Sequence record: OQ411014.1
Length of the DNA: 64,000 bases
Direction: 5' to 3' (one strand)
From: Escherichia phage EJP2
Shown here one piece after another: positions 51,293 through 64,000 of the stretch. How positions within the stretch are numbered: the first letter of the stretch is position 1; each line of letters starts with the position of its first letter. The translations under genes and the position numbers were made by a program. The notes beneath the pieces are model-generated. The model was not told where the DNA came from. It searched no databases and saw nothing but the letters and a program-made list of their open reading frames with translations.

Positions 51293-51300
51293 AGAAAACA

Positions 51301-51328
51301 CAGTAAGAACAGTAAGAACAGTAAGCAC
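51301..51328. repeat. tandem 9-bp repeat (cagtaagaa x3)
   Basis: cagtaagaacagtaagaacagtaagcac. Confidence 0.6.
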
Positions 51329-51756: not shown

Positions 51757-51848
51757 TAAATCCCGATCCTAAAAATTTTGGAGTACCAACGAAATTAAAT
51801 CCCGATCCTAAAAATTTTGGAGTACCAACGAAATTAAATCCCGATCAT
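51757..51848. repeat. tandem direct repeat, 39-bp unit x2.3
   Basis: taaatcccgatcctaaaaattttggagtaccaacgaaat repeated exactly, then a partial third copy. Confidence 0.75.
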
Positions 51849-52380: not shown

Positions 52381-52580
52381 AGACACCTAGACCTCCAGAC
52401 TCCTGGATGGATAGATGGATTTCCATCTAGACGGCTAAACGGCTAGATTGCTGGATGGATAGATGGCTAGCCATTTAGACGGCTAAACGGCTAAACGTCC
52501 GAACGTCTAGAAGTCTGGCGGTATGGATGGCTAAACGTCTGGACTGATAAACGTCTAACCATCTGGACGGCTAAAAATCA
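52381..52580. repeat. cluster of short direct repeats and palindromes
   Basis: ctggatggatagatgg x2; tagacggctaaacgg x2; ggctaaacg x4; aaacgtc x3; palindromes agatgga-tt-tccatct and atggct-agccat. Confidence 0.7.
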
Positions 52581-52753
52581 TTAGTGTCATTTTCAAGCAT
52601 TGGCTAGCCTACCGCGTCGGGGTAAATTCCCCAGCAGTATCGAACGTTAGATTTTTCTGAATCTGGAATCATTATCTTATAAACTGGGGGCAATGTCAAC
52701 GGCCTGGACGGATATTTTTAAAATTTTTTTCAGTACTGAATTTTGGGCGTAAC

Positions 52754-53030
52754 TATGCACCCGGTGGGCTTGAGTCTTTCTCGACTTGATGGAACTATTA
52801 TACAGTACTGAATTTTTAAAGCAATACCATAAACGCAAAAAGTTTTAATTAATTTGCTTGCTATCCTGGGCCGGACTATGGTACTATATTTCAGTACTGA
52901 GAAAGTGCGTTTACCTGCTAGGGTGCGGGAGTGTATCCTTTTTTTATATCTTGAATTTTGGGCGTAATTCCGCACCCTCTGGGGTTTCCGCTTTCTCGCG
53001 TCTATGTAGTAATTATACGCTTTTTCAGGA
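52754..53030. repeat. two diverged copies of the tatgcacccggtggg / agggtgcgg inverted-repeat element
   Basis: gaattttgggcgtaa...gcaccc...tttctcg...attata present twice; agggtgcgg ... ccgcaccct inverted repeat. Confidence 0.45.
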
Positions 53031-53298
53031 TCAAGTCAATACCTAAAAACAAAATAATTGAAAATAATTTAACGCGTTTAAACGACCCGTAAAGCCCTGG
53101 AATGGTTGGAATGGTGCAAATGTATAGCTTAGGGGTAATAATGCGTTAGAATGCGTCTGAGGCCGTTTTACGGGGTATAGGGATGATTTAGTGGATTGAT
53201 TCAGTACTGAATGATAGTTCCCCTGGATGGTTGCAGTACTGAATAATAGTTCCCCTATATAGAAAGAAAACTATTTTAAAAGTATTTGTAGAAAGTAC

Positions 53299-53360
53299 TT
53301 GCACCGTACTGATAAAAGCGTATAATGTTTTACATCGAGAGCGGGAACACTTCCCGCTAC
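53299..53360 (+). promoter_or_regulatory. early-type promoter + 5' leader hairpin module
   Basis: TTGCAC-N16-TATAAT then gagagcggga-aca-cttcccgc. Confidence 0.7.
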
Positions 53361-53381
53361 ACTTTAAAAGAGATTAAAACG

Positions 53382-53744
53382 ATGGCAACTCAAATCACCA
53401 AAATTATTGCTAACCTGGTTAACTTCCGCGACGAGATGAAAGATCTTCCGGCGGCGACGGTTAAAACTCACATTGACGCATACCGCGAACTGATTAAAAT
53501 GCTGCCGCTTAAGCGTGAACAATACGCCGCCACCGTGATGCTTGATGCGATGATCCATAAGATGATCGCCAGTGATTTGACGATGGTTTATCAGTACATG
53601 GGCGAAAAATTCTCGGTGTATAGTAAACCAGTCCCAGGCATGGCAACAACTGAGGAATTGCACTGCCTTAACTTAAAGCAAGATGCATGGGATAATATGC
53701 CGCGTTTCATGGTATGGGTAGAAAGTGGTAAAATTTACGAATAA
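53382..53744 (+). CDS. hypothetical small protein
   Basis: track ORF starts at ATG inside the -10 box (53325); ATG at 53382 follows the leader hairpin (120 aa). Confidence 0.6.
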   Translation: MATQITKIIANLVNFRDEMKDLPAATVKTHIDAYRELIKMLPLKREQYAATVMLDAMIHKMIASDLTMVYQYMGEKFSVYSKPVPGMATTEELHCLNLKQDAWDNMPRFMVWVESGKIYE

Positions 53745-53757
53745 GTTAAAAATTAGT

Positions 53758-53819
53758 TTGACAGTACTGAATAAAAGCGTATAATGTTTTATATCGAGAG
53801 CGGGAAGAGTTCCCGCCTC
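53758..53819 (+). promoter_or_regulatory. early-type promoter + leader hairpin
   Basis: TTGACA-N16-TATAAT then gagagcgggaa-gag-ttcccgcctc. Confidence 0.7.
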
Positions 53820-53839
53820 CATTAAAGAGGAATTAAAAA

Positions 53840-54064
53840 ATGACTACTAAAACTTTCAACGGCCATAAAAACTACAACCATTGGAATGTTAGCCTTTGGA
53901 TCAATAACGATGAATCACTGTACCAATTGGCCCTGGAATGTATTAAAAGCACCAACACGCGAGATAAAGCGGTTGAGCGGATGTTACGCCTTTTAGGTAC
54001 TCACACGCCTGATGGGGCACGTTATAGCAAATCAAGCGTTCGTGCGGCAATGGTTGGAATGTAA
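53840..54064 (+). CDS. hypothetical small protein (paralog of 56336-56575)
   Basis: 74 aa; shares HWNVSLWINNDESLY and C-terminal AAMVGM. Confidence 0.6.
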   Translation: MTTKTFNGHKNYNHWNVSLWINNDESLYQLALECIKSTNTRDKAVERMLRLLGTHTPDGARYSKSSVRAAMVGM

Positions 54065-54076
54065 TAGAATATATTT

Positions 54077-54107
54077 AAAGTACTATCATTCTATGCGATA
54101 GTACTTT
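54077..54107 (+). terminator. hairpin, possible terminator
   Basis: aaagtactatc-N9-gatagtacttt (11-bp stem); weak T-run. Confidence 0.4.
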
Positions 54108-54157
54108 ATAATAGTGTTCTAACATACAGTACTCACTTAACTAATAGGATGTATACC

Positions 54158-54535
54158 ATGATCATTAAATTCTACGCTACCCGTGAAATCGCTCGCATCG
54201 TTGCCCGTACCGAAGGAGAAACCTTTAAAGATATGGGAACGAGTGCTGAGAAGGGTAAACGCTGGGCGGTACAGTTCAAAGAATTATCAGATATTATTAA
54301 TTCACCTGAGCCAGTACTGACAGCGGCAGAACAAGCGAAAGCCAATGAGCTGGCGGATCTTCTGAATGGTGTCAATGTGAACGTTAAAGTTAATGCGGCG
54401 GCCTGGTCACATGCTGATGCACTGGCAGCTTTAAAAAGTCCTGATAGTGTATCTCGTCGAGTGGTAGAAATAAAGCACGACCGCAAGGGCAACCGCGTTA
54501 CAGTATACAGTAAGCGTAAAATTGCAGTACTGTAA
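54158..54535 (+). CDS. hypothetical protein
   Basis: ATG at 54158 with RBS tagga 8 nt upstream (alternative ATG at 54149); 125 aa. Confidence 0.55.
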   Translation: MIIKFYATREIARIVARTEGETFKDMGTSAEKGKRWAVQFKELSDIINSPEPVLTAAEQAKANELADLLNGVNVNVKVNAAAWSHADALAALKSPDSVSRRVVEIKHDRKGNRVTVYSKRKIAVL

Positions 54536-54551
54536 TAATTCAAAAAAGTAC

Positions 54552-54614
54552 TTGCACAGTACTGAATAAAGCGTATAATGTTTTATATCGAGAGCGGGAA
54601 GAGTTCCCGCCTCC
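54552..54614 (+). promoter_or_regulatory. early-type promoter + leader hairpin
   Basis: TTGCAC-N16-TATAAT then gagagcgggaa-gag-ttcccgcctc. Confidence 0.7.
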
Positions 54615-54633
54615 ACTTAAGAGGAATTAAAAA

Positions 54634-54864
54634 ATGACTACTATGTATATGATCGAAGTTAAAACCGTAAAAGATACGACCACGAATAAAACTACTTACT
54701 TACAGCGGATCTGCGGTGTCTGGCAACGTATCAGCAAATCAAAGTACTTTAAATTAACATCATATGCAAATCGTTCGGATTCATTCAGTACTGAAATAAA
54801 AGGTAATAAAGTACACCAATACGGCACTTATTATTATTACAGCCTGGACGCGATTGCAGTATAA
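54634..54864 (+). CDS. hypothetical small protein
   Basis: 76 aa; RBS aagaggaa. Confidence 0.6.
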   Translation: MTTMYMIEVKTVKDTTTNKTTYLQRICGVWQRISKSKYFKLTSYANRSDSFSTEIKGNKVHQYGTYYYYSLDAIAV

Positions 54865-54897
54865 TCATATTTTTTGAAAAATTTACAATTGCCGGTA

Positions 54898-54926
54898 TTG
54901 ACTTATTTTGTCAGTACTGGCATAAT
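54898..54926 (+). promoter_or_regulatory. type-II promoter (TTGACT-N17-CATAAT)
   Basis: ttgacttattttgtcagtactggcataat; converges on minus-strand promoter 55049-55077. Confidence 0.55.
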
Positions 54927-55048
54927 GTATTCATTGGCAGATAAGCCGTAGCCCATAGGGTGCGGAGATGTATCTATAGAAAAAGTAGTTTAGTATAGTT
55001 ACAGTTATGCACCCGGTGGGTTAGTGACTTTCTCGTCTTTATGTAGCT

Positions 55049-55077
55049 ATTATGCCAGTACTGGATAGTGCTGTCAA
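55049..55077 (-). promoter_or_regulatory. minus-strand type-II promoter inside repeated element
   Basis: reverse complement reads TTGACA-gcactatccagtactgg-CATAAT. Confidence 0.55.
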
Positions 55078-55121
55078 TACTTTTTTCTATTCAGTACTGA
55101 AAAAGTATTTGTAGAAAGTAC

Positions 55122-55149
55122 TTGCATAGTACTGAATAAAGCGTATAAT
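55122..55149 (+). promoter_or_regulatory. early-type promoter driving structured-RNA element
   Basis: TTGCAT-N16-TATAAT. Confidence 0.65.
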
Positions 55150-55156
55150 GTTTTAT

Positions 55157-55226
55157 ATCAGGACGGGGAAGAGATTCACTGTTAAGTAGTCTAGGTGTAA
55201 GACGTATGAAAAACACCCCTGATAAA
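55157..55226 (+). ncRNA. candidate small structured RNA / leader element (copy 1 of 3)
   Basis: atcaggacgggga ... cccctgat closing helix; conserved core gttaagtagtc.agg.gtaagac.ta.gaaaa; no ORF. Confidence 0.35.
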
Positions 55227-55241
55227 AGAATTAAAAAGTAC

Positions 55242-55305
55242 TAGACAGTAAGAAATAAAAAGCGTATAATGTTTTACATCGAGTAGGGGGAATGGTTCTC
55301 CTACC
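55242..55305 (+). promoter_or_regulatory. promoter + leader hairpin
   Basis: TAGACA-N17-TATAAT then gtaggggga-atgg-ttctcctac. Confidence 0.6.
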
Positions 55306-55324
55306 TAAATTAAGGAATTACAAA

Positions 55325-55924
55325 ATGAATACTATCGTTAAATCTTTCGCAGACCTGGACGCAGAACAGAAGATCGCAGCGGTTGAAATGTATACAGACC
55401 GTGAAAAAGATAGCTCGGAAGATTTCTTTTCCGAAGGTGTAGTGGAATATTACCGTGAAACGGTACTACCTGAATACGGCATAGATGAAGCTGAATTGCA
55501 ATACAGTGGTTTTTGGTCGCAAGGTGACGGTGCATCAATCAGTACTGACAGCGTGGACGCGGAGAAGTTTTTACGCAAGATTAAAGCGTTAACGAAATAT
55601 CGTTCTATCCGTCACTTGTTGAATGAAGATGATTTGGCAATGAGTGTAGAACGTTCACACTCTCGCTACGCACACGAAAACACGGTAAGCGGATACATTG
55701 AAACGGCGTACACTGATTTAACTGTAAAACAAGCGGCACTTGCTGATGACCTGGAAAACGTACTGACCGAAACTATCCGCGAATTGTCTTGTGAACTGTA
55801 CCGTGAACTTGAGAAGGCTTATGATGATTATTACAGTACTGAAAGCATGGTTAATCAAATCGAGGGTAATGGTTACCAGTTTGAAGTAAACGAAGATGGC
55901 GACGTGGTAGGGATTGAATACTAA
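55325..55924 (+). CDS. hypothetical acidic protein
   Basis: track ORF from 55292; ATG at 55325 follows RBS aaggaa (199 aa). Confidence 0.6.
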   Translation: MNTIVKSFADLDAEQKIAAVEMYTDREKDSSEDFFSEGVVEYYRETVLPEYGIDEAELQYSGFWSQGDGASISTDSVDAEKFLRKIKALTKYRSIRHLLNEDDLAMSVERSHSRYAHENTVSGYIETAYTDLTVKQAALADDLENVLTETIRELSCELYRELEKAYDDYYSTESMVNQIEGNGYQFEVNEDGDVVGIEY

Positions 55925-55932
55925 AAAAGTAC

Positions 55933-55994
55933 TTGCATAGTACTGAATAAGGCGTATAATGTTTTATATCGAGAGCGGGAACACTTCCCGCCTC
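55933..55994 (+). promoter_or_regulatory. early-type promoter + leader hairpin
   Basis: TTGCAT-N16-TATAAT then gagagcgggaa-cac-ttcccgcctc. Confidence 0.7.
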
Positions 55995-56017
55995 ACATTA
56001 AGAGGAATTAAAAAAAA

Positions 56018-56251
56018 ATGAGTACTATCTTAACCGTTTCTCAATCTGTTGCCCTGGCTGACTTGTTGAACGCTTTAAGCCGTTGTACTGAGGTTGGCTT
56101 GTTTGATGTGGTTGACGTTGCCCCTGATGTTATCAATCATTTTTGTGATGCAATGGCTGAATGCCAGGAAGATGATCGCCGTATGATGGCGGTAAACTTT
56201 GCGGAAGTCCAGCCGGGAGAGTTAAAAGGTTTACCGGAAGTTAAAAATTAG
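56018..56251 (+). CDS. hypothetical small acidic protein
   Basis: 77-aa ORF. Confidence 0.6.
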   Translation: MSTILTVSQSVALADLLNALSRCTEVGLFDVVDVAPDVINHFCDAMAECQEDDRRMMAVNFAEVQPGELKGLPEVKN

Positions 56252-56252
56252 T

Positions 56253-56314
56253 TTGACAGTACTATCAAATAGTGTATAATGTTTTATATCGAGAGCGGGA
56301 ATGGTTCCCGCCTC
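56253..56314 (+). promoter_or_regulatory. early-type promoter + leader hairpin
   Basis: TTGACA-N16-TATAAT then gagagcgggaa-tgg-ttcccgcctc; overlaps 3' end of upstream gene. Confidence 0.7.
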
Positions 56315-56335
56315 CAATTAAGAGAGATTAATATC

Positions 56336-56575
56336 ATGGCAACTACTAAAACTTACAACGGTTACAAAAACAAAACTCATTGGAACGTTTCTTTGTGGAT
56401 CAATAACGATGAATCATTGTACCGCCTGGCGAAAGAGTTTATCGACGATAACGCTAATCGTGAAGATGCAGCCCGTCAGATGATGCTCTTTCTGGAACAA
56501 ACTGGACAAGATAAAACACCGGACGGCTTTAAGTATAGTACTACTGCGATCCGTGCGGCAATGGTTGGAATGTAA
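56336..56575 (+). CDS. hypothetical small protein (paralog of 53840-54064)
   Basis: track ORF from 56279; ATG at 56336 (79 aa). Confidence 0.6.
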   Translation: MATTKTYNGYKNKTHWNVSLWINNDESLYRLAKEFIDDNANREDAARQMMLFLEQTGQDKTPDGFKYSTTAIRAAMVGM

Positions 56576-56584
56576 AAAAAAGAG

Positions 56585-56645
56585 TAGACAGTACTGAATA
56601 AAAGCGTATAATGTTTTATATCGAGAGCGGGAATGGTTCCCGCTA
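56585..56645 (+). promoter_or_regulatory. early-type promoter + leader hairpin
   Basis: TAGACA-N16-TATAAT then gagagcgggaa-tgg-ttcccgc. Confidence 0.65.
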
Positions 56646-56664
56646 CTAACCTGGAGTAATTGCA

Positions 56665-56850
56665 ATGCTGAATATTTTAATCGTTGATGAACATGGTAAA
56701 GAACTGGAATCATTTGAGTCTATGATCAATCCAATTGGTTCAAAGACTATCACTACTAATCTGGCTGTTTATGAATGTAATGAGTTTTCTGTTGACTTTA
56801 AACGCAATGAGATTGTAGTACACGTTCAAAATGATTTTATGAAATTTTAA
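56665..56850 (+). CDS. hypothetical small protein
   Basis: 61-aa ORF. Confidence 0.55.
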   Translation: MLNILIVDEHGKELESFESMINPIGSKTITTNLAVYECNEFSVDFKRNEIVVHVQNDFMKF

Positions 56851-56858
56851 AATAGTAC

Positions 56859-56920
56859 TTGCATAGTACTGAATAAGGCGTATAATGTTTTATATCGAGA
56901 GCGGGAATGGTTCCCGCCTC
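56859..56920 (+). promoter_or_regulatory. early-type promoter + leader hairpin
   Basis: TTGCAT-N16-TATAAT then gagagcgggaa-tgg-ttcccgcctc. Confidence 0.7.
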
Positions 56921-56939
56921 ACTATTAAGGAATACTACA

Positions 56940-57161
56940 ATGGCTAATATCACTACTCTTTCCCAACTTGAAGCACTGGTTAAATCTATGCGTGACCATG
57001 CCAATAGTATTGGTGTACAAGATCCGGCGGTATGTTTTTGTGACGAATTGAATGATGATACTTTAATCATTGCAGAAGTCCAGGACGTTTCCAACTATTC
57101 ATCGCGTTACACTGGCGACGTAGCAAATAAAGGTGACTTCTGTTTATACCTTACAAAATAA
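56940..57161 (+). CDS. hypothetical small protein
   Basis: track ORF from 56907; ATG at 56940 follows RBS aaggaa (73 aa). Confidence 0.6.
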   Translation: MANITTLSQLEALVKSMRDHANSIGVQDPAVCFCDELNDDTLIIAEVQDVSNYSSRYTGDVANKGDFCLYLTK

Positions 57162-57165
57162 TAAC

Positions 57166-57195
57166 AACGGGGATAATAACTCCCCGTTACTTTTT
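57166..57195 (+). terminator. rho-independent terminator
   Basis: aacgggga-taataac-tccccgtt followed by acttttt. Confidence 0.65.
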
Positions 57196-57266
57196 CAGTA
57201 CTGAATCATTTAATAGACGGATCTATGCACCCGGTGGGTTAGTGACTTTCTCGTCTTTATGTAGCT

Positions 57267-57295
57267 ATTATGCCAGTACTGGATTGTATTGTCAA
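57267..57295 (-). promoter_or_regulatory. minus-strand type-II promoter inside repeated element
   Basis: reverse complement reads TTGACA-atacaatccagtactgg-CATAAT. Confidence 0.55.
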
Positions 57296-57338
57296 GCATT
57301 TAAAGTACATTTATTTTAAAAAGAATATGAAGAAAGTA

Positions 57339-57396
57339 CTATACACGGCTGAATAAAAGCGTATAATGTTTTGCATAGGGGGAAACAACTTCCCCC
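57339..57396 (+). promoter_or_regulatory. promoter (weak -35) + leader hairpin
   Basis: TATAAT at 57362-57367; hairpin agggggaa-acaac-ttccccc. Confidence 0.5.
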
Positions 57397-57418
57397 ACTA
57401 ATTAAGAGAGAAATAAAA

Positions 57419-57625
57419 ATGGCTAAATGTACTATTTGTAATAAAGCAATTGTGCTAGTTCCTTCCGCTAGTGAACGTGCTAAACGTTATGGTGGCAAAG
57501 CGTCAGACTATACAAAAATGTTCACTACTCATACTGAATGTGCTATTAAAAAACGTTCAGAAGAAAGCACTGAATTAATGCGTCGAATTGTCGCGGAATC
57601 AAAAGCTAAAAAAGTACTTGCATAA
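57419..57625 (+). CDS. hypothetical small Cys/His protein
   Basis: track ORF from 57371; ATG at 57419 (68 aa); MAKCTICNK...HTEC. Confidence 0.55.
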   Translation: MAKCTICNKAIVLVPSASERAKRYGGKASDYTKMFTTHTECAIKKRSEESTELMRRIVAESKAKKVLA

Positions 57626-57673
57626 CTTATTCAGTACTGTACAATGTTTTTCAAAGGGGGAACAACTTCCCCC
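57617..57673 (+). promoter_or_regulatory. early-type promoter + leader hairpin
   Basis: TTGCAT-N16-TACAAT then agggggaa-caac-ttccccc; -35 lies in last codons of upstream gene. Confidence 0.65.
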
Positions 57674-57693
57674 GCTAATTAAGGAATAAGAAA

Positions 57694-57930
57694 ATGGCTG
57701 AACAAATTAAATCAACGTCTTCGAATGTGACGGGTACTGTAGCTCACTTTATCGGTGATGAATCGCGTGGTGTTCCCTATTGTGCGGTGCATGTAAACAC
57801 TGAGGGTAACTACTGGTTTACAGTTTACGGATCATATTCATTTGGACGACCTGGACACCAAAAAATCCTGGATAAAGTACAACCAACGGGTAAAAATATC
57901 ACTGCTGAAATGTTTTATAAAAAATCATAA
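57694..57930 (+). CDS. hypothetical small protein
   Basis: 78 aa; RBS aaggaataag. Confidence 0.6.
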   Translation: MAEQIKSTSSNVTGTVAHFIGDESRGVPYCAVHVNTEGNYWFTVYGSYSFGRPGHQKILDKVQPTGKNITAEMFYKKS

Positions 57931-57936
57931 AAGTAC

Positions 57937-57997
57937 TTGCATAACTTATTCAGTACTGTACAATGTTTTATATCGAGAGCGGGGAATACTTCCTCGC
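57937..57997 (+). promoter_or_regulatory. early-type promoter + leader hairpin variant
   Basis: TTGCAT-N16-TACAAT then gagagcggggaatacttcctcgcc. Confidence 0.6.
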
Positions 57998-58018
57998 CTT
58001 AACTAAAAGGATATACTA

Positions 58019-58318
58019 ATGAAAATTGCACTAATCGCCCTGGCCTTGTCTGTTTCCTCTTTCGCCGCTACTGCATCGCGTGATGTACCAACTGAAAAAT
58101 TTATTCAGTGCCAGGTTATCATGACAGACGAAAACACGGGCGGCATGTTTACCAAACCGCTTGAATTAAATCCGGCGATGTTTAAGGCGGGGATGTTCCA
58201 CGAAGAAGACGAAAAAGGCAGTACTACAATCTATTACGACGAACAACGTAAACGCGGCACTGTTACGGTAATGGATGAATCATCAGTTACCTTTACGGGG
58301 ATCATTACCTGTAAGTAA
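58019..58318 (+). CDS. putative secreted protein
   Basis: 99 aa; signal peptide MKIALIALALSVSSFAATA. Confidence 0.6.
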   Translation: MKIALIALALSVSSFAATASRDVPTEKFIQCQVIMTDENTGGMFTKPLELNPAMFKAGMFHEEDEKGSTTIYYDEQRKRGTVTVMDESSVTFTGIITCK

Positions 58319-58367
58319 TAAGGGGAATTATCATCATAACTTTCACTGGCGGTTAACAGTACTGAAT

Positions 58368-58389
58368 CATAGGGGGAATAGTTCCCCCT
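58368..58389 (+). promoter_or_regulatory. leader hairpin without obvious consensus promoter
   Basis: agggggaa-tag-ttccccct upstream of 58421. Confidence 0.35.
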
Positions 58390-58420
58390 TACTATATTAA
58401 ACATCAAAGGAGTAAAGGCA

Positions 58421-58690
58421 ATGGCTATCATCACGGCAAAGACTATCTATACTATTCAACATGGTAATCAGTCCTACCAGGTGGAAGGCGTGGAAGGTTT
58501 AAAACAGTACTGCGACGATATTATGGGCGGCCTGGTTGACCGTATGACGGCGGGGAATGTAGGCCATCATTTAACTGATAAGATGAATCAGCACGCTTTC
58601 TTGATGAAATCATTCGACGAGCTTGATCTAATCGTCGATACCGTTCGCAGTGTAAAACAGTATATTGATGATATAACCAAAGATGATTGA
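58421..58690 (+). CDS. hypothetical small protein (MAII- family)
   Basis: 89 aa; N-terminus MAIITAKTIYTIQ resembles 59639-59818. Confidence 0.55.
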   Translation: MAIITAKTIYTIQHGNQSYQVEGVEGLKQYCDDIMGGLVDRMTAGNVGHHLTDKMNQHAFLMKSFDELDLIVDTVRSVKQYIDDITKDD

Positions 58691-58709
58691 TAGTACTGTA
58701 AACGTGTAT

Positions 58710-58745
58710 AAGCCTGTAGAATCAATTCTACGGGCTTTTTTGTTT
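58710..58745 (+). terminator. rho-independent terminator
   Basis: gcctgtagaat-caa-ttctacgggc followed by T6. Confidence 0.7.
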
Positions 58746-58846
58746 TATATGATGTGTTAGCCTGGCTGGTGGCGTTAAGGCCGTTAGAATGCGATTGAGA
58801 GCGTCGAAAGTATTTTAAAAGTATTTTTAGAAAGTACTTGCACAGT

Positions 58847-58865
58847 ACTGATAAAAGCGTATAAT
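58847..58865 (+). promoter_or_regulatory. early-type promoter driving structured-RNA element
   Basis: TTGCAC-N16-TATAAT. Confidence 0.65.
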
Positions 58866-58872
58866 GTTTTAC

Positions 58873-58948
58873 ATCAGGACGGGGAAGCAAACTAGCTCAA
58901 CCGTTAAGTAGTCCAGGAGTAAGACATACGAAAACCTCCCCTGATAAA
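58873..58948 (+). ncRNA. candidate small structured RNA / leader element (copy 2 of 3)
   Basis: atcaggacgggga ... tcccctgat closing helix; conserved core. Confidence 0.35.
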
Positions 58949-58963
58949 GTACTAAAAAGTAGT

Positions 58964-58991
58964 TTGACAATAGAAAGTAAACGAGTATAAT
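58964..58991 (+). promoter_or_regulatory. sigma70-type promoter
   Basis: TTGACA-N16-TATAAT (tttgacaatagaaagtaaacgagtataat). Confidence 0.65.
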
Positions 58992-59024
58992 ACTCACATC
59001 AACTTAACGAAAGGAATAAAAAAA

Positions 59025-59252
59025 ATGGCTATCATCATCACTCGCGTATCTGGTACAGTTGGCAATGCGGTAGTAGTAGCGGTTATCACTAACAAGAAAG
59101 GTGCGGAACTGCATTTTGCAATGAATAACTGGTCAGTGAATGAGTTCGGGCAGTTCGCTAGTGTAGAATACATTGAAACCTATCAAGTACCGACTATTAG
59201 CTTAACTGATTTAGGTGTCGAGCGTATCCTTTGCCTGGATGAATTAAACTGA
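59025..59252 (+). CDS. hypothetical small protein (MAII- family)
   Basis: 75 aa; RBS aaaggaa. Confidence 0.55.
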   Translation: MAIIITRVSGTVGNAVVVAVITNKKGAELHFAMNNWSVNEFGQFASVEYIETYQVPTISLTDLGVERILCLDELN

Positions 59253-59262
59253 TAAAAAGTAC

Positions 59263-59319
59263 TTGCACAGTACTGAAAAAAGCGTATAATGTTTTATATA
59301 GGGGGAAACAACTTCCCCC
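59263..59319 (+). promoter_or_regulatory. early-type promoter + leader hairpin
   Basis: TTGCAC-N16-TATAAT then agggggaa-acaac-ttccccc. Confidence 0.7.
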
Positions 59320-59339
59320 GCTAATTAAGGAATAAGAAA

Positions 59340-59552
59340 ATGGCTAATATCTGCACTGTACTGAAAAATGCAAAACAAGTTTTATTTTCTGACCATGAAA
59401 ATTTTAATAAAGATATTACAGGCGTTAAGAATATCAAAGATGTAAAAAGTGCAATAGGTATCTATTGCAATATGAAACGTGTTGGAACGTTCGGTGACAA
59501 GGTACTATATCAGGCAGGGGATTACAATTTTACACTGACTATCATTAACTAA
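59340..59552 (+). CDS. hypothetical small protein
   Basis: 70-aa ORF. Confidence 0.55.
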   Translation: MANICTVLKNAKQVLFSDHENFNKDITGVKNIKDVKSAIGIYCNMKRVGTFGDKVLYQAGDYNFTLTIIN

Positions 59553-59571
59553 AAATATTATCACAGTACTA

Positions 59572-59600
59572 TTGACATAATTTGATAGTACTGACATAAT
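59572..59600 (+). promoter_or_regulatory. type-II promoter (TTGACA-N17-CATAAT)
   Basis: ttgacataatttgatagtactgacataat; no leader hairpin. Confidence 0.6.
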
Positions 59601-59638
59601 AACTTTTATCAAGTACATACTATTAAGGAATTTAAAAA

Positions 59639-59818
59639 ATGGCTATCATCGCAAAAACTGAGATTCAAGGCTTAGATTCTATCCTCCTGGCTTATGAGTC
59701 CGAGAAAGGTTTATATGTTGTTTCCTATGGTGATTATATTCGTGACTTTGAAGAAATTGATCAAGCCTTTGAATGCTACATTCGCCAGGTGAATAAAGCA
59801 TACGACGATTACCGGTAA
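59639..59818 (+). CDS. hypothetical small protein (59 aa, MAII- family)
   Basis: ATG after RBS aaggaa; not in ORF track. Confidence 0.45.
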   Translation: MAIIAKTEIQGLDSILLAYESEKGLYVVSYGDYIRDFEEIDQAFECYIRQVNKAYDDYR

Positions 59819-59836
59819 AATATTATCACAGTACTA

Positions 59837-59865
59837 TTGACATAGTTTGATAGTACTGACATAAT
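59837..59865 (+). promoter_or_regulatory. type-II promoter (TTGACA-N17-CATAAT)
   Basis: ttgacatagtttgatagtactgacataat. Confidence 0.6.
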
Positions 59866-59901
59866 AACTTTTATCGAGTGCAACTATTAAGGAATACTAA
59901 A

Positions 59902-60153
59902 ATGCAATCTATCAGTACTTTAATCGATGCAGGTTATGATGTTCGTCGTTCCATGATCGCGGTTAGTTCTTCCCAGGTCGTTCAAAGTGGTTATGTATGT
60001 TTTGTTGTTCGTGGTACATTACAGGAGCGAGCAATAAACCACGATGTAAAGAATAATTGCTCTTACATTGTATTCCGAAAAGTCAAATATAAACTTGATG
60101 TTCCCGTAAAGCCTATTAGCGGGGCGTACAACGTAGAATCATTAAAAGCGTAA
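59902..60153 (+). CDS. hypothetical small protein
   Basis: track ORF from GTG 59878; ATG at 59902 follows RBS aaggaa (83 aa). Confidence 0.55.
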   Translation: MQSISTLIDAGYDVRRSMIAVSSSQVVQSGYVCFVVRGTLQERAINHDVKNNCSYIVFRKVKYKLDVPVKPISGAYNVESLKA

Positions 60154-60221
60154 CAGCATAGCAGTACTGACCATTAACGCCGTAGCGGTCGATTTAGGCC
60201 GCTTATATTGAGGATTTAACT

Positions 60222-60611
60222 ATGAATACTAATCAAGTACTGAACGAAATCGAAAGCATCATTAAGCCGATGAAACGTGTTGATGCAATGCTAACACCGG
60301 AAGAAAGTCGCTTGTATGAGCGATACAGCGTCGAACAAGCCCAGGCGATGGCACGTATTCGCCCCGTTGCCAGTACTGACAAGGAAGATCCAACGTTAGC
60401 CATCCAAAAGAAGATCGACATCTTAGCGGCGAATATGTATATGATTGATGCGTCGCCAGGTAAAGTATTTGCGTATGATGATACAACTGAAAGCGATTTC
60501 TACTATAGCCTGGACGTGGGGGATCTTCCTATCGAGTCAGTGATTGAACATGTTGTAACTGTTGCTTATGATCATTTAGTTAAAAACAATGTTGACAGTA
60601 CTATCAAATAG
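60222..60611 (+). CDS. hypothetical protein
   Basis: 129 aa; RBS gaggat. Confidence 0.6.
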   Translation: MNTNQVLNEIESIIKPMKRVDAMLTPEESRLYERYSVEQAQAMARIRPVASTDKEDPTLAIQKKIDILAANMYMIDASPGKVFAYDDTTESDFYYSLDVGDLPIESVIEHVVTVAYDHLVKNNVDSTIK

Positions 60612-60654
60612 CGTATAATGTTTTACATCGAGAGCGGGAATACTTCCCGCCTCA
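60592..60654 (+). promoter_or_regulatory. early-type promoter + leader hairpin
   Basis: TTGACA-N16-TATAAT then gagagcgggaa-tac-ttcccgcctc; promoter embedded in 3' end of upstream CDS. Confidence 0.7.
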
Positions 60655-60674
60655 CTAATTAAGGAATTAAAATT

Positions 60675-60908
60675 ATGATGCACATCCTTACTCTTACTCT
60701 GAATCACAAAACTTATGAAACTATCCTCGTCATCTCTGAGTCGCAGGAAAAGGTACGTGATCACGCGGCGAAAGTAATGCAGGCATTCAGTGAACGTTAT
60801 CCTACATGGGATCGTGATTATAGTATGTTACACATTGCCGATGGCAACGCGATAATGGTCCAGGACGTGCCAAATCACGGGGCTGAATCAGTACTAGTTT
60901 TATTTTAA
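60675..60908 (+). CDS. hypothetical small protein
   Basis: 77 aa; RBS aaggaa. Confidence 0.6.
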   Translation: MMHILTLTLNHKTYETILVISESQEKVRDHAAKVMQAFSERYPTWDRDYSMLHIADGNAIMVQDVPNHGAESVLVLF

Positions 60909-60916
60909 AATAGTAC

Positions 60917-60978
60917 TTGCATAGTACTGAAAAAAGCGTATAATGTTTTATATCGAGAGCGGGAATAGTTCCCGCCTT
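60917..60978 (+). promoter_or_regulatory. early-type promoter + leader hairpin
   Basis: TTGCAT-N16-TATAAT then gagagcgggaa-tag-ttcccgcc. Confidence 0.7.
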
Positions 60979-60996
60979 AACTAAAAGGGTAACATC

Positions 60997-61209
60997 ATGC
61001 AAGGTCAACTAATCGTTCGTAAATGGTCTGATACTAACGCTAAACCGTGGGATGTACAATACATCGCCCCAAATGGTGAATCCAGATATCAACCAGGTGT
61101 AACGCATAGTACTGAGCAATTCGCCGCCGCTCATCGCGAACGTCTGTTACAATCAATTCAGCAAGGTTCCGGTGAAAAATTCATTCAGGATCATTGGCTG
61201 AAAGATTAA
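60997..61209 (+). CDS. hypothetical small protein
   Basis: 70-aa ORF. Confidence 0.6.
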   Translation: MQGQLIVRKWSDTNAKPWDVQYIAPNGESRYQPGVTHSTEQFAAAHRERLLQSIQQGSGEKFIQDHWLKD

Positions 61210-61227
61210 CAAAAAAAGATTAAAAAA

Positions 61228-61258
61228 GGGATTGACTCCGGTCAGTCCTTTTTGCTAT
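61228..61258 (+). terminator. rho-independent terminator (cassette family)
   Basis: gggattgac-tccg-gtcagtcc followed by T5. Confidence 0.65.
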
Positions 61259-61351
61259 TATATACGCATCGAAACAATCTAGCCCACCGGGTGCATAAAT
61301 GTATCTTTTTTTTGCTGGTGGCTAGTACTGAAAACTATTTTTAAAAAGTAC

Positions 61352-61379
61352 TTGCATTGTACTTAGAATAAAGTATAAT
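61352..61379 (+). promoter_or_regulatory. early-type promoter driving structured-RNA element
   Basis: TTGCAT-N16-TATAAT. Confidence 0.6.
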
Positions 61380-61387
61380 GTTTTACA

Positions 61388-61461
61388 TCAGGACGGGGAA
61401 CGAAACAAGTAACCCCGTTAAGTAGTCCAGGAGTAAGACATACGAAAACCTCCCCTGATAA
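61388..61461 (+). ncRNA. candidate small structured RNA / leader element (copy 3 of 3)
   Basis: atcaggacgggga ... tcccctgat closing helix; inner stem acgggg/ccccgt. Confidence 0.35.
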
Positions 61462-61467
61462 AATAGT

Positions 61468-61495
61468 TTGACAATAGAAATTAAACGAGTATAAT
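61468..61495 (+). promoter_or_regulatory. sigma70-type promoter
   Basis: TTGACA-N16-TATAAT (tttgacaatagaaattaaacgagtataat). Confidence 0.65.
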
Positions 61496-61527
61496 ACTTA
61501 CATCAACTACTGTTAAGGAAACATAAA

Positions 61528-61803
61528 ATGCGGATTCTACTGACAGCTAACGAAATCGAACAAGTACTGACTACTAACCTGGAAGACTGGAAACGTGAAG
61601 CAGATATCCAGGCGGTTCAATTGCTTAACGATAAGTTAACGCCGGATGACTTAAGCAAAATTGTAGATCCTCAATTCTACGAAGATATCCACGACACCGC
61701 GTTAAGCGTCGAGGATGTACTTGATAAGCATTTTATTGATATTGATTTGCAGGTTTACGGTCGTAAAAACTTTATCACTATCCACGACATTTACAATAAT
61801 TAA
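61528..61803 (+). CDS. hypothetical small acidic protein
   Basis: 91-aa ORF. Confidence 0.6.
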   Translation: MRILLTANEIEQVLTTNLEDWKREADIQAVQLLNDKLTPDDLSKIVDPQFYEDIHDTALSVEDVLDKHFIDIDLQVYGRKNFITIHDIYNN

Positions 61804-61805
61804 GT

Positions 61806-61866
61806 ATTGACAAAGTATCTTAGTACTGTATAATAGTTTACATCAAGGGGGGAATGGTTCCCCTCA
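61806..61866 (+). promoter_or_regulatory. promoter + leader hairpin
   Basis: TTGACA-N16-TATAAT then aggggggaa-tgg-ttcccct. Confidence 0.65.
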
Positions 61867-61883
61867 AGTCCAGGAGATACACC

Positions 61884-62147
61884 ATGAACGCTATTGAAAT
61901 CACTATTAATGCACACGTATACGACAACGTAGTACTGCAAACTACTATGACCGCCAATGATAGCAGTACTTTGCGAAATACTGTTATCAGTGCCGTTTGT
62001 GCTGCTGTTGGTGATGTAGCACTGGAGAACGCACAACATATTAACCAGGCCTTTACTATGTGCAAGCGTGATAACTCAAAACATATTATCGTCGAAGGTG
62101 TAGGCGGTGTTGAATTTAACGTATACATGAAAAAGGTAACAGCATGA
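61884..62147 (+). CDS. hypothetical small protein
   Basis: track ORF from 61854; ATG at 61884 follows RBS aggaga (87 aa). Confidence 0.55.
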   Translation: MNAIEITINAHVYDNVVLQTTMTANDSSTLRNTVISAVCAAVGDVALENAQHINQAFTMCKRDNSKHIIVEGVGGVEFNVYMKKVTA

Positions 62148-62335
62148 CCGTCGATGAAGTCCGCAAAGTACTGGCAGCGTTACGCTATCATAATCATAGC
62201 AAGGTCATAAATGATCCTGATTATGTTGATTCAAGCCTGGAGGAAGACACCTTGAACGCGATTAGCTATATGCAAACGTTACTGAAGCGTATGACTGAGA
62301 AGAATAGATCTGATTTCATCGGTGATAAAATTTAA
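62144..62335 (+). CDS. hypothetical small protein
   Basis: 63 aa; ATGA overlap with upstream gene. Confidence 0.55.
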   Translation: MTVDEVRKVLAALRYHNHSKVINDPDYVDSSLEEDTLNAISYMQTLLKRMTEKNRSDFIGDKI

Positions 62336-62342
62336 AAAGTAC

Positions 62343-62405
62343 TTGCACAGTACTGATAAAAGCGTATAATGTTTTATATCGAGAGCGGGAATACTTCCCG
62401 CCTCA
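62343..62405 (+). promoter_or_regulatory. early-type promoter + leader hairpin
   Basis: TTGCAC-N16-TATAAT then gagagcgggaa-tac-ttcccgcctc. Confidence 0.7.
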
Positions 62406-62423
62406 CTATTAAGGGATAACAAA

Positions 62424-62642
62424 ATGAATTTAAATAAAGTCGAAACGAAAACTATGGTTGAAGCTATTAAACACGGTTTCACATTTAGAAATGATTCACA
62501 TTTTATTAATTTTCAACAAGGCCATAGAACTATTAAAAAACTAACAGACAAAGGTTTATTAGTAGAAGTGAATGAAGGGAACGGCGTGGAATATCGCCCT
62601 ACCCATGACGGTATTACATTTATGAAATACAGTGTAAAATAA
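62424..62642 (+). CDS. hypothetical small protein
   Basis: 72-aa ORF. Confidence 0.6.
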   Translation: MNLNKVETKTMVEAIKHGFTFRNDSHFINFQQGHRTIKKLTDKGLLVEVNEGNGVEYRPTHDGITFMKYSVK

Positions 62643-62654
62643 TTCAAAAAGTAC

Positions 62655-62717
62655 TTGCACAGTACTGAGATTCAGGTATAATGTTTTACATAGAGCGGGG
62701 GAATGGTTCTCCCGCCT
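62655..62717 (+). promoter_or_regulatory. early-type promoter + leader hairpin
   Basis: TTGCAC-N16-TATAAT then agagcggggga-atgg-ttctcccgcc. Confidence 0.65.
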
Positions 62718-62735
62718 ACATTAAGGAATAGAATC

Positions 62736-62960
62736 ATGACTACATACGCAGCACTCGAATCAGTAGTATCAGACCTGGCATTTGAATCTAAGCCGTTTGA
62801 TGCGATCTATAGTACTGATTACCGTGATGCCGTCCTGAATAGTACGCAGGAAGAAAAAGATAAACTTATCGCAACATACCATGAAGCATGGAAGTACTAC
62901 CGCCAATGGGAAAAAGAAGAAAGTGAGTCTACCATCGACGGCCTGAATAATTTAATTTAA
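62736..62960 (+). CDS. hypothetical small protein
   Basis: track ORF from 62703; ATG at 62736 follows RBS aaggaa (74 aa). Confidence 0.55.
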   Translation: MTTYAALESVVSDLAFESKPFDAIYSTDYRDAVLNSTQEEKDKLIATYHEAWKYYRQWEKEESESTIDGLNNLI

Positions 62961-62980
62961 AAAGTTTTATTTCAGTACTA

Positions 62981-63009
62981 TTGACATAGCTTGATAGTAC
63001 TGACATAAT
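62981..63009 (+). promoter_or_regulatory. type-II promoter (TTGACA-N17-CATAAT)
   Basis: ttgacatagcttgatagtactgacataat. Confidence 0.6.
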
Positions 63010-63046
63010 AACTTTTATCAAGTACATACTATTAAGGAAACAAATC

Positions 63047-63460
63047 ATGACTTCTCAAGCTCAAAACGTCCTGGCCCAAAATATTCAAGCTGACAAAAAT
63101 CATGCCGCTATGGTTGTTGGTTATATTCAAGCTATGCAATTCAGTACTGTACACAATGAGAACGGCGATTACCTGGAAGATTATGAGCTATCTGATGAAG
63201 CACGTCAAGCGGCGGTGATTGCATGTTCTCGTTTCCTTGAGAAACACGGTAATGATCTGGAAGTAGTTCGCGGCATGTTTATTGACTATAGTTATGAGAA
63301 AGCAGGTAATGATCTGTTTCTTACCCGCGAAGGTCACGGAACTGGTTTTTGGGATCGTGATTTAGGTCACTACAGCGATGTATTCACGAAGTACTGCGAA
63401 AGTATTAATGTTTGTGATCCGTACCTGGGCGATGATAACTTGATCTATATGGGTGAGTAA
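63047..63460 (+). CDS. hypothetical protein
   Basis: 137 aa; RBS aaggaaa. Confidence 0.6.
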   Translation: MTSQAQNVLAQNIQADKNHAAMVVGYIQAMQFSTVHNENGDYLEDYELSDEARQAAVIACSRFLEKHGNDLEVVRGMFIDYSYEKAGNDLFLTREGHGTGFWDRDLGHYSDVFTKYCESINVCDPYLGDDNLIYMGE

Positions 63461-63721
63461 ATGGCTGTAGGATTTGCAAAGGACGGAGCGGAGCAATTAG
63501 AGATTCTGGCGGTCGTGGAGGCCGCTGTACAGCACGCAAGAAATCAGCTAGGGGATAGTACTACTGAATCACTTAAACACTGTCAGGACTGTTTTAAGCC
63601 TATTCCTGAACGTCGTAGAGAACTGGTTAAAGGTTGCAAATATTGTATTGACTGTCAAACGGAATATGATACTATATTTAAACGAGATCCGCGTAATTGC
63701 TGGCATAGGTCGATGAGATAG
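63461..63721 (+). CDS. TraR/DksA-family C4 zinc-finger protein
   Basis: 86 aa; HCQDCFKPIPERRRELVKGCKYCIDCQ matches the CxxC-x-PIPxxRR-x-CxxC pattern of TraR-like proteins; TAAATG coupling. Confidence 0.6.
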   Translation: MAVGFAKDGAEQLEILAVVEAAVQHARNQLGDSTTESLKHCQDCFKPIPERRRELVKGCKYCIDCQTEYDTIFKRDPRNCWHRSMR

Positions 63722-63743
63722 GGGATCACTCCCCTGTTTTATT
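63721..63743 (+). terminator. rho-independent terminator
   Basis: ggggatcactcccc followed by tgttttatt. Confidence 0.55.
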
Positions 63744-63808
63744 ATTTCAGTACTGTAACCTATAGATACATTTATGCACCCGGTGGGTTAGTTGTTGTCA
63801 TGGGATAT

Positions 63809-63837
63809 ATTATGCCAGTACTGGATAAGGTTGTCAA
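63809..63837 (-). promoter_or_regulatory. minus-strand type-II promoter inside repeated element
   Basis: reverse complement reads TTGACA-accttatccagtactgg-CATAAT. Confidence 0.55.
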
Positions 63838-63871
63838 CAATTATTTTGATGTAATTATTTTAAAAAAGTAC

Positions 63872-63933
63872 TTGCACAGTACTGAAAAAGGCGTATAATG
63901 TTTTACATCGAGAGGGGGAATACTTCTCCCTGG
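63872..63933 (+). promoter_or_regulatory. early-type promoter + leader hairpin
   Basis: TTGCAC-N16-TATAAT then gagaggggga-atac-ttctccct. Confidence 0.65.
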
Positions 63934-63951
63934 TACATTAAGGAATAAAAA

Positions 63952-64000
63952 ATGAAAGCATCAAAAAAACGTAATACCAAGAAATCATCTTCAACGTTCG
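63952..64000 (+). CDS. hypothetical basic protein, 3'-truncated by window edge
   Basis: ATG after RBS aaggaa; MKASKKRNTKKSSSTF... Confidence 0.4.
   Translation, partial: MKASKKRNTKKSSSTF

Follow-up and report, generated by a model that had tools for sequence, protein, structure and literature searches.

Promoter-coupled leader stem-loops repeated through a small-gene array of Escherichia phage EJP2

Why would a phage place much the same stem-loop between the promoter and the start codon of one small gene after another? The question is raised by a 64,000-nucleotide stretch of Escherichia phage EJP2 (record OQ411014.1; this whole stretch is the window below), in which an earlier inspection of the letters, here called the original prediction, had proposed about 20 near-identical units of promoter and leader hairpin between 53.3 and 63.9 kb. 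That estimate holds up well: we find 21 promoter copies there, all on the plus strand, and in 18 of them a stem-loop with a predicted energy of -10.4 to -16.4 kcal/mol comes next, ahead of a Shine-Dalgarno sequence (SD) and an ATG.

Cassette anatomy and selection on the stem-loop

The promoter core TAYAATGTTTTNYAT occurs 19 times from 53,321 to 63,908, always on the plus strand and against 0.01 copies expected from shuffles, and slightly relaxed cores (two variants) bring the total to 21. The -10 hexamer is TATAAT in 19 of these and TACAAT in the other two, 20 of the spacers to the -35 are 16 bp long and the remaining one is 17 bp, and the -35 hexamers comprise 13 of the form TTGCA(C/T), five TTGACA and three weaker ones (TAGACA twice, TATACA once). 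TTGCA(C/T) agrees with TTGACA at 3-4 of six positions, and its departure is identical in all 13. By its -35 as well as by its -10 and spacing, the predicted cassette promoter is of the near-consensus sigma-70 (RpoD) type. The stereotyped ACTTGCA(A) -35 region might be thought a MotA-like activator box, but its spacing does not fit the T4 MotA box.

The cassettes share one order of parts, which runs from an A-rich upstream tract through -35, spacer, -10, an A/T-rich discriminator (GTTTTAY) and the conserved tetranucleotide (C/T)ATC to the stem-loop, SD and ATG. The A of this tetranucleotide, about 8 nt past the -10, is the predicted transcription start and agrees with the 7-8 nt expected of host holoenzyme. 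The stem-loop begins 8-13 nt past the -10 in the 18 copies and consists of a G.C-rich stem of 7-11 bp, purine on its 5' side and pyrimidine on its 3' side, around a loop of 3-5 nt; its core, GGGRANNNTYCCC, is present 12 times against 0.02 expected. As originally described, the stem is constant and the loop is not: nine copies have identical stems and unlike loops, and the loops in the window read CAC, GAG, TGG, TAC, TAG, ATGG and (A)CAAC. The idea of a uniform hairpin unit stands for 18 of the 21 promoters, whereas the remaining three (-10 at 55144, 58860 and 61374) carry a structured element of about 72 nt with no adjoining gene, a class that had not been distinguished. The claim that several promoters lie inside the upstream coding sequence (CDS) is likewise true in part, since two -35 elements do (57618 and 60592), but most others begin past the stop codon, which precedes the -35 by 2-14 nt.

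To look beyond these copies, we searched the window along with six related loci for strong sigma-70-like promoters and used RNAfold on a 36-nt segment beginning 5 nt past each -10. Across the seven loci, 30-58% of the gene-strand promoters of the early regions are followed by hairpins of -9 kcal/mol or lower, a threshold reached in about 5% of background windows and after 0-11% of opposite-strand promoters. The 94 unique promoter-plus-hairpin instances have loops of 3-5 nt (3 nt in 40 of them) and a first paired base mostly 10-13 nt past the -10, and they contain 31 distinct 7-bp apical stems, such as GCGGGAA/TTCCCGC, GGGAGAA/TTCTCCC, TGGGGAA/TTCCCCA, GGCGGCA/TGCCGCT and GGGGGAG/CTCCCCC. An arm pairs with its own partner at 6.71 of 7 positions, and at 4.97 of 7 when arms are exchanged between hairpins.

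A covariance model trained on 18 window copies yielded an alignment of 91 matches, in which the inner 7-bp helix is 96.7% paired, with two-sided changes in five of its seven pairs, while the outer 3-bp helix of the window variant is weak (61.8% paired). The covariation score of 0.306 compares with 0.168 +/- 0.008 for shuffles, none of 500 reaching 0.306, and with at most 0.115 for slid partners.

The pairing is also strand-specific. In the 94 instances, there are 50 G.U pairs to 8 U.G pairs, and purines make up 87% of the 5' arm; folding is better for the plus strand in 45 cases and for its reverse complement in 19 (Wilcoxon p = 2e-5). Because RNAfold favors G.U pairs, we ran a fold-free version of the strand test with an inverted-repeat finder restricted to Watson-Crick pairs. 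Distinct hairpins with a single non-Watson-Crick position have G.T or T.G there in 18 cases and A.C or C.A in three (p = 0.0015), all three A.C cases lying at the stem base, and background inverted repeats are balanced. On sequence grounds, the G.T bias fits pairing in the transcript or the non-template strand and not a duplex palindrome or a template-strand hairpin. The original inference of selection on structure is thus upheld by compensatory changes, covariation, G.T bias, own-arm pairing and tight coupling to the -10 together: comparison of the copies shows a stem-loop selected as a plus-strand, presumably transcript, structure in which pairing takes precedence over sequence. The purine and pyrimidine arms may go back to one ancestral hairpin that diversified by transitions through tolerated G.U intermediates.

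Two further properties define the element. Of the 89 plus-strand GGGRA..TYCCC hairpins counted in the jumbo-phage loci, 81 lie no more than 30 nt downstream of a -10, and the hairpin is therefore a promoter-linked leader element and not a general intercistronic one. With the predicted +1 at the A of (C/T)ATC, the 5' untranslated regions measure 41-50 nt and open with an unpaired tail of 1-6 nt (median 3), and the SD lies about 6 nt beyond the end of the hairpin, outside the stem, with a mean unpaired probability of 0.63. In such a compact leader, hardly any RNA upstream of the ribosome footprint would be single-stranded.

Genomic setting and distribution

The 53.3-63.9 kb region matches the Asteriusvirus jumbo coliphages PBECO4, 121Q, G17, phAPEC6, fEgEco12 and JP4. 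Nucleotide identity to Asteriusvirus records is about 83% and patchy, with no record covering more than 48% of the region, and we take the EJP2 window to be Asteriusvirus-like jumbo coliphage DNA. The physical ends of fEgEco12 were established by PhageTerm and restriction mapping, which gave direct terminal repeats of 20,993 bp (PMC13070987). In our alignment, position 176 of fEgEco12 falls at window position 51,726 and the homologous stretch runs on from there, and the repeats annotated in vB_Ec-M-J (21.5 kb) and in Klebsiella phage fENko-Kae01 (19.7 kb; Kae01 below) both span the region homologous to the array. From the alignments with these three phages, the array begins about 1.75 kb inside the relatives' direct terminal repeat of about 21 kb. 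It must also extend past the end of the window, which cuts it, because matches to the model cover 18.3 kb in ECO103 4-12-1. The region is best explained as the first half of an array of self-contained early-gene cassettes, located in what is the terminal repeat of its relatives.

RNA-seq of PA5oct, a distant relative within the clade, has shown that terminal-repeat genes are strongly transcribed early by the host RNA polymerase; the phage depends on that polymerase, and its promoters read TTGAC/TATAATA (PMC7318152). The stereotyped early programme of the original prediction agrees with these data and with the location of the array in relatives; for EJP2 itself we infer it.

The DNA just upstream of the array, from 51289 to 53301, is mostly non-coding and repeat-rich, and it surrounds position ~51,550, which corresponds to the physical left genome end of fEgEco12. 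It contains a 39-nt tandem repeat at 51757-51853, a 32-nt repeat at 53192-53256 and, at 52393-52575, an array of units resembling GGCTAAAC and GGATAGAT with a periodicity of 8/16 bp. This stretch may be involved in packaging, terminus formation or DNA entry. A tRNA/tmRNA scan found none.

The promoter-plus-hairpin architecture is also present in the Asteriusviruses G17, ECO103 4-12-1 and TH47, and at least 10 copies lie within the terminal repeat of Kae01, a phage of a separate genus cluster with about 29% genome identity (PMC13070987). In Kae01, the hairpin goes with one promoter subtype (TTGCA, 16-bp spacer, TATAAT, GTTTT), and another subtype that is also abundant in the Kae01 repeat (TTGACA/TTTACA, 17-bp spacer, TATAAT, ACTTA-CATCAA) has no hairpin. 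Further afield, unrelated 148-kb phi92-like myoviruses (Stephanstirmvirinae: phi92, C3, DIJ07P2) have hairpins at the same distance past consensus promoters, with stems that are partly different, and the segment of -10 plus hairpin is kept at 82-94% identity in more than 100 phi92/rV5-like records. Among the phi92-like hairpin genes are homologs of window genes, including DUF7249/gp232, gp233, gp234 and gp235, so that the architecture also stands upstream of homologous genes (phi92 gp232, for example). The small early genes that EJP2 shares with the phi92-like phages (gp232-gp235), leaders included, are those at 56336-56575, 53840-54064, 59025-59252, 59340-59552 and 54149-54535, and the DUF7249 gene has two paralogs in the window. 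This distribution suggests that whole expression cassettes have been exchanged horizontally between jumbo phages and phi92-like myoviruses.

Candidate roles for the leader hairpin

The reading that we favor, plausible but well short of assured, is that the hairpin acts as a 5'-terminal mRNA stabilizer, by analogy with those of T7 gene 10 and ompA, and protects early messages from decay. The host sigma-70 polymerase would fire the cassette promoters once the repeat enters the cell, and a 5'-terminal stem-loop adjoining the ribosome footprint would then block RppH and the 5'-end-dependent entry of RNase E, giving immediate-early messages a higher yield and a longer lifetime. In nested read-through transcripts, internal copies of the hairpin could also protect processed ends. 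The leaders show two features that a stabilizer calls for, a stable stem-loop kept by pairing and a ribosome binding site that is not sequestered.

Several points weigh against this proposal. The +1 is only predicted, and a start at the upstream A or an outer helix that fails to form would lengthen the tail to 5-8 nt, beyond the roughly 4 unpaired 5' nucleotides compatible with protection. The structure guided the covariance alignment, and since the copies are related by duplication, the changes counted as covariation cannot be taken as independent. A pure stabilizer needs no set sequence, yet the stems are confined to G-rich/AA and UU/C-rich arms, a composition that may come from common descent with transition-only drift via G.U or from recognition by a factor. 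Finally, the hairpin is tied to one promoter subtype and absent from another in the same repeat, which a general need for stability would not predict.

These last observations are where a recognition tag gains its ground. A trans-acting factor, be it a phage RNA-binding protein or nuclease or a host factor, could use the hairpin to act jointly on all messages of this promoter class, either to shut them off or degrade them at the early-to-middle switch or to mark them as viral, so that they escape phage-induced decay of host mRNA. We judge this unlikely. The restricted stem composition (GGGRA(A)...UUYCCC, with its purine-rich 5' arm, over 94 copies), the link to a single promoter subtype and the nine window copies with identical stems and differing loops all accord with it, and the array genes, mostly small proteins without an assigned role, could include such a factor. 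What a recognized sequence would not lead one to expect is that loops vary freely and that phi92-type stems are clearly different (GGCGGCA/UGCCGCU, AGGCGGUGG/CCACCGCCU) at an unchanged position; moreover, purine and pyrimidine arms are expected from transition-only compensatory evolution of a single ancestor, and no RNA-binding domain was found among the ten array products scanned. A more specific version, in which the tag is self-marking and a factor tells immediate-early viral messages from host messages, sparing them the RNase E-dependent decay of host mRNA that the phage accelerates or allowing their coordinated destruction at the early-to-middle switch, strikes us as more doubtful still. 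Were the tag real, cassette exchange between Asteriusvirus and phi92-like phages would make the hairpin a portable standard for "early expression".

A co-transcriptional role would account for the fixed distance from the -10: a hairpin formed by the nascent RNA (about +5 to +28), or by DNA of the non-template strand, might help the polymerase to escape, or might keep it from backtracking or pausing, or keep Rho from loading, on very strong promoters. RNA and non-template strand fit the pairing bias equally well, the first transcribed nucleotides are rich in purines, and the promoter subtype concerned has a suboptimal -35 and a 16-bp spacer. Neighboring consensus promoters in the same repeat nevertheless do without a hairpin, the tight SD spacing points to a role at the mRNA level, and we are aware of no sigma-70 promoter at which a promoter-proximal hairpin is required, which leaves this reading improbable. 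The pairing statistics disfavor two others. A 17-bp inverted repeat with a 3-bp center just past the start has the size and place typical of an operator, so that a dimeric phage repressor might bind the GCGGGAA-N3-TTCCCGC-like repeat (+8 to +24) in duplex DNA and turn early promoters off; but half-sites co-vary compensatorily between copies that the same proteins would read, loop lengths of 3-5 alter the half-site spacing, and the imperfections are G.T over A.C by 18 to 3 where a duplex site predicts equality, making an operator very improbable. We give just as little credence to a functionless passenger copied along with the promoter during cassette duplication or exchange: copies within a genome are nearly identical, as if recently duplicated or gene-converted, and whole cassettes are common to unrelated phages, yet pairing is kept across many stem sequences and across genera with a genome identity of only about 29% (PMC13070987), and it is the loops that diverge and not the stems. 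The tag stays in play because the stems are restricted in composition and the hairpin goes with a single promoter subtype.

Other identities were rejected. The original prediction had held that the hairpin is not a terminator, rightly so, as none of the 18 hairpins leads into a T run (a U tract in the RNA) and none is listed by the terminator scan; in existing annotation, the homologous region of G17 has ARNOLD-predicted terminators at several positions, and a segment of vB_EcoM_ASO2A that matches the hairpin region is annotated as a terminator. Its suggestion of an antitermination-type element did not survive, since the loops vary and conservation of the boxA/boxB kind is lacking; a lambdoid nut (boxA/boxB) or put site is dismissed on the same loop variation (CAC, GAG, TGG, TAC, TAG, CAAC), on there being a single hairpin and on the lack of an Rfam match. 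Promoter hairpins of the N4 virion RNA polymerase, which are extruded from the template strand upstream of the start around a 3-nt loop, do not apply despite the 3-nt loops noted above, as the element lies downstream of a sigma-70 promoter and its G.T pairs would be C.A mismatches in the template strand. Stems of 7-11 bp fall short of the ~20 bp (about two helical turns) required of an RNase III site, and an SD outside the stem argues against a translational repressor hairpin. Rfam searches at gathering thresholds over the whole window, and at permissive E-values over 53-64 kb, placed neither the hairpin nor the ~72-nt element in a family.

Layout of the array and comparison with known systems

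The original prediction had each module driving a tiny monocistronic gene, which does not hold. Only about four plus-strand intrinsic terminators (57166-57188, which closes block 1; 58710-58737; 61224-61253; and ~63721-63745) serve about 30 genes over 10.7 kb, two promoters serve two-gene units, and with terminators so few, nested read-through transcripts that share their 3' ends are expected.

All cassettes lie on the plus strand. Cassette 1 (53299-53384) has its -35 (TTGCAC) at 53299, its -10 at 53321-53326, its hairpin at 53340-53358 and, at 53382, the ATG of a 120-amino-acid open reading frame (ORF; phrog_7352). Cassette 2 (53758-53842; -35 TTGACA, -10 at 53780, ATG at 53840) and cassette 3 (54552-54636; -10 at 54574, ATG at 54634) both have a GAG loop, in hairpins at 53796-53819 and 54590-54613. 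After the first promoter with a ~72-nt element and no hairpin (55122-55223; -10 at 55144, element at 55157-55223) comes the cassette at 55242-55327, in which a TAGACA -35, a -10 at 55265 and a hairpin with two G.U pairs (55283-55304) precede a gene of 199 amino acids (ATG at 55325). The hairpin of the next cassette (55933-56020; -10 at 55955, ATG at 56018) lies at 55971-55994 with a CAC loop, and that of its neighbor (56253-56338; -35 TTGACA, -10 at 56275) at 56291-56314 with a TGG loop; the gene starting there at ATG 56336 encodes a DUF7249 protein homologous to phi92 gp232, and the phi92 gene has the same leader hairpin. Block 1 continues with cassettes at 56585-56667 (-10 at 56607, hairpin at 56624-56647, ATG at 56665) and 56859-56942 (-10 at 56881, hairpin at 56897-56920, ATG at 56940).

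Beyond the first terminator, the cassette at 57340-57421 (-10 at 57362, hairpin at 57378-57396, ATG at 57419) uses the stem variant GGGGGAA/TTCCCCC. The two TACAAT promoters follow, one in the cassette at 57618-57696 (-10 at 57640, hairpin at 57656-57673, ATG at 57694), whose -35 lies in the upstream CDS that ends at 57625, and the other in that at 57937-58021 (-10 at 57959, hairpin with one G.U pair at 57975-58000, ATG at 58019). A hairpin of the cassette type at 58371-58389, AGGGGGAATAGTTCCCCCT, stands 31 nt before the ATG at 58421 and has no recognizable promoter. The second ~72-nt element (58873-58945, in the unit 58838-58945 with its -10 at 58860) is succeeded by a hairpin-less promoter at 58964-58991, which then drives the gene at ATG 59025, and the GGGGGAA stem variant returns in the cassette at 59263-59342 (-10 at 59285, hairpin at 59301-59319), whose ATG at 59340 opens the phi92 gp234 homolog. 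The cassette at 60592-60677 has its TTGACA -35 and spacer in the upstream CDS, which ends at 60611, its -10 at 60614, its hairpin at 60630-60653 and its ATG at 60675; the one at 60917-60999 has these last three at 60939, 60955-60978 and 60997.

The third ~72-nt element (61387-61459; unit 61352-61459, -10 at 61374) is again followed by a hairpin-less promoter, at 61468-61495, which drives the gene at ATG 61528. The next cassette (61807-61886) has the discriminator AGTTTAC, a -10 at 61829, a hairpin with one G.U pair at 61847-61865 and an ATG at 61884, and drives two overlapping genes that end at 62335. Cassettes at 62343-62426 (-10 at 62365, hairpin at 62381-62404, ATG at 62424) and 62655-62738 (-10 at 62677, hairpin with one G.U pair at 62691-62718, ATG at 62736) precede the last one at 63872-63954, with its -10 at 63894, a hairpin with one G.U pair at 63913-63931 and, at 63952, the ATG of an ORF that leaves the window. 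Between these, the early gene at 63461-63718 (plus strand) encodes an 86-amino-acid DksA/TraR-type C4 zinc finger protein (PF01258 at 34.7 bits, above the cutoff of 24.9; phrog_54) that likely modulates host RNA polymerase. Proteins of the DksA/TraR family modulate RNA polymerase, and promoters with A/T-rich discriminators of the GTTTTAY kind are typically not inhibited by them; a link between the cassette discriminators and this product is speculative.

The ~72-nt element has a closing stem, AUCAGG/CCUGAU, around single-stranded UAAGUAG and GUAAG(N)C(NN)ACGAAA segments that are invariant or nearly so, and its inner helix has three compensatory pairs among 10 copies, one of which comes from Kae01. 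It contains no ORF, received no tRNA call and matched no Rfam family, and from its sequence it is a candidate for an abundant early non-coding RNA. PA5oct has two abundant non-coding RNAs within its terminal repeat.

Promoters of other kinds surround the cassettes. At least five further sigma-70-like promoters in the array region have no hairpin (58964, 61468, 59572, 59837 and 62981). Consensus promoters also stand at block boundaries just past terminators, at 54898-54975 and 61232-61300 on the plus strand and at 55077-54990, 57295-57215, 63837-63760 and 53039-52960 on the minus strand; they consist of TTGACT/TTGACA, a 17-18 bp spacer and CATAAT/TATTAT, some with TG, and with several on the opposite strand, those at 54898 (plus) and 55077 (minus) form a convergent pair. 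A motif (A/G)CCCA(Y)(N)GGGTGC is conserved about 25 nt past each block-boundary promoter, and the Kae01 repeat holds six such units, which may represent short sense/antisense RNAs or a site acting at the DNA level. Neither the ~72-nt element nor the convergent promoter pairs have been described previously. A second consensus family occupies the first 30 kb of the window (plus strand at 3034, 4329, 17934, 21754, 24079, 25644, 27483, 27777 and others), with TTGAC(A/T), a 17-18 bp spacer and TAT(A/T)AT followed by CATCGAAACGAAGGAG or a similar sequence (as in TTGACT-17-TATTAT...CATCGAAACGAAGGAG). Its leaders are unstructured, very short and free of hairpins, and it has the start motif (C)ATC(G/A)A in common with the hairpin class.

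The side observation that we find most striking is an excess of the palindrome AGTACT, present in 294 copies against about 21 expected in the 64-kb window, with CAGTACTG alone accounting for 104 copies where shuffles give 1.1. They recur window-wide, roughly every 600 bp, and long ORFs contain them in all three frames. Three other Asteriusvirus loci show a 17-19-fold excess, and phi92 has none in 48.6 kb, where 16 are expected. Within the cassettes, one AGTACT runs into the -35 (AGTAC-TTGCA) and another is located in the spacer or directly next to the -10; the palindrome is not a necessary part of the module, as phi92-type cassettes have none. AGTACT could be the site of a DNA-binding or DNA-modifying factor, and a literature search found no description of its enrichment.

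If the hairpin stabilizes or marks messages, it would explain how dozens of tiny host-takeover genes are highly expressed within minutes of DNA entry in 350-kb phages, a group that is little understood, and promoter, 5' hairpin and ribosome binding site would together make a compact natural Escherichia coli expression part of about 85 bp. The hairpin also offers a simple signature for immediate-early genes or terminal repeats in jumbo-phage and rV5/phi92-like genomes, and the sharing of cassettes between unrelated phages means that regulatory leaders travel with accessory genes.

Several known systems resemble parts of this arrangement. The T7 gene 10 (class III) leader, at the 5' end of highly expressed messages, has the stem-loop GGGAGACC ACAA CGGTTTCCC. 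According to a study that cites and re-tests Mertens 1996, this 5' stem-loop stabilizes the mRNA and raises expression (PMC6146998). Like the EJP2 hairpin, it is a phage stem-loop at the 5' end with purine 5' and pyrimidine 3' arms (compare GGGGGAA ACAAC TTCCCCC at 57378), followed by an A/U-rich spacer and a strong SD. It differs in serving a few late promoters of T7 RNA polymerase, whereas the EJP2 hairpin accompanies host sigma-70 promoters, presumably immediate-early, in 20-30 or more copies per genome; the two share no sequence homology, and a stabilizing role in EJP2 is proposed by analogy. The ompA 5' untranslated region sets another precedent for a 5' stabilizer, with a stable hairpin a few nucleotides from the 5' end whose exact sequence is unimportant and which leaves the SD unoccluded. 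That leader, however, is a long one with two hairpins in a single host gene, while the EJP2 leaders are compact (41-50 nt, predicted) and stereotyped over many genes.

For promoters, the nearest parallels are the RpoD-like early promoters with UP-like elements predicted in the Rak2-like jumbo phages CBB and GAP32, which, as in EJP2, are consensus sigma-70 promoters before short hypothetical ORFs, including in the terminal repeat, and were proposed to drive host takeover (PMC5259590). Consensus early promoters were also predicted in rV5 (PMC3606486). In the literature on Asteriusvirus, phAPEC6, CBB, rV5, phi92, Sharanji, fEgEco12 and fENko-Kae01 and in a jumbo-phage review, promoters are sometimes predicted and the leader hairpin is not described. 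The setting resembles that of T5, whose long terminal repeat enters first and has its takeover genes expressed by host polymerase (NC_005859 annotation). The T5 repeat (pre-early) shows no promoter-adjoining hairpins, so they are not a general trait of long terminal repeats. To our knowledge, stepwise DNA transfer is not known for Asteriusviruses. As self-contained expression units that appear mobile between unrelated phages (phi92 gp232-235 homologs with similar leaders), the cassettes are also reminiscent of morons, which differ in having their own terminator and residing in prophage late operons; most EJP2 cassettes have no terminator and lie in the early region of a lytic phage. As a kind, then, the 5' stabilizing stem-loop is familiar; the novelty lies in finding it as a promoter-coupled, mass-duplicated family common to unrelated coliphages.

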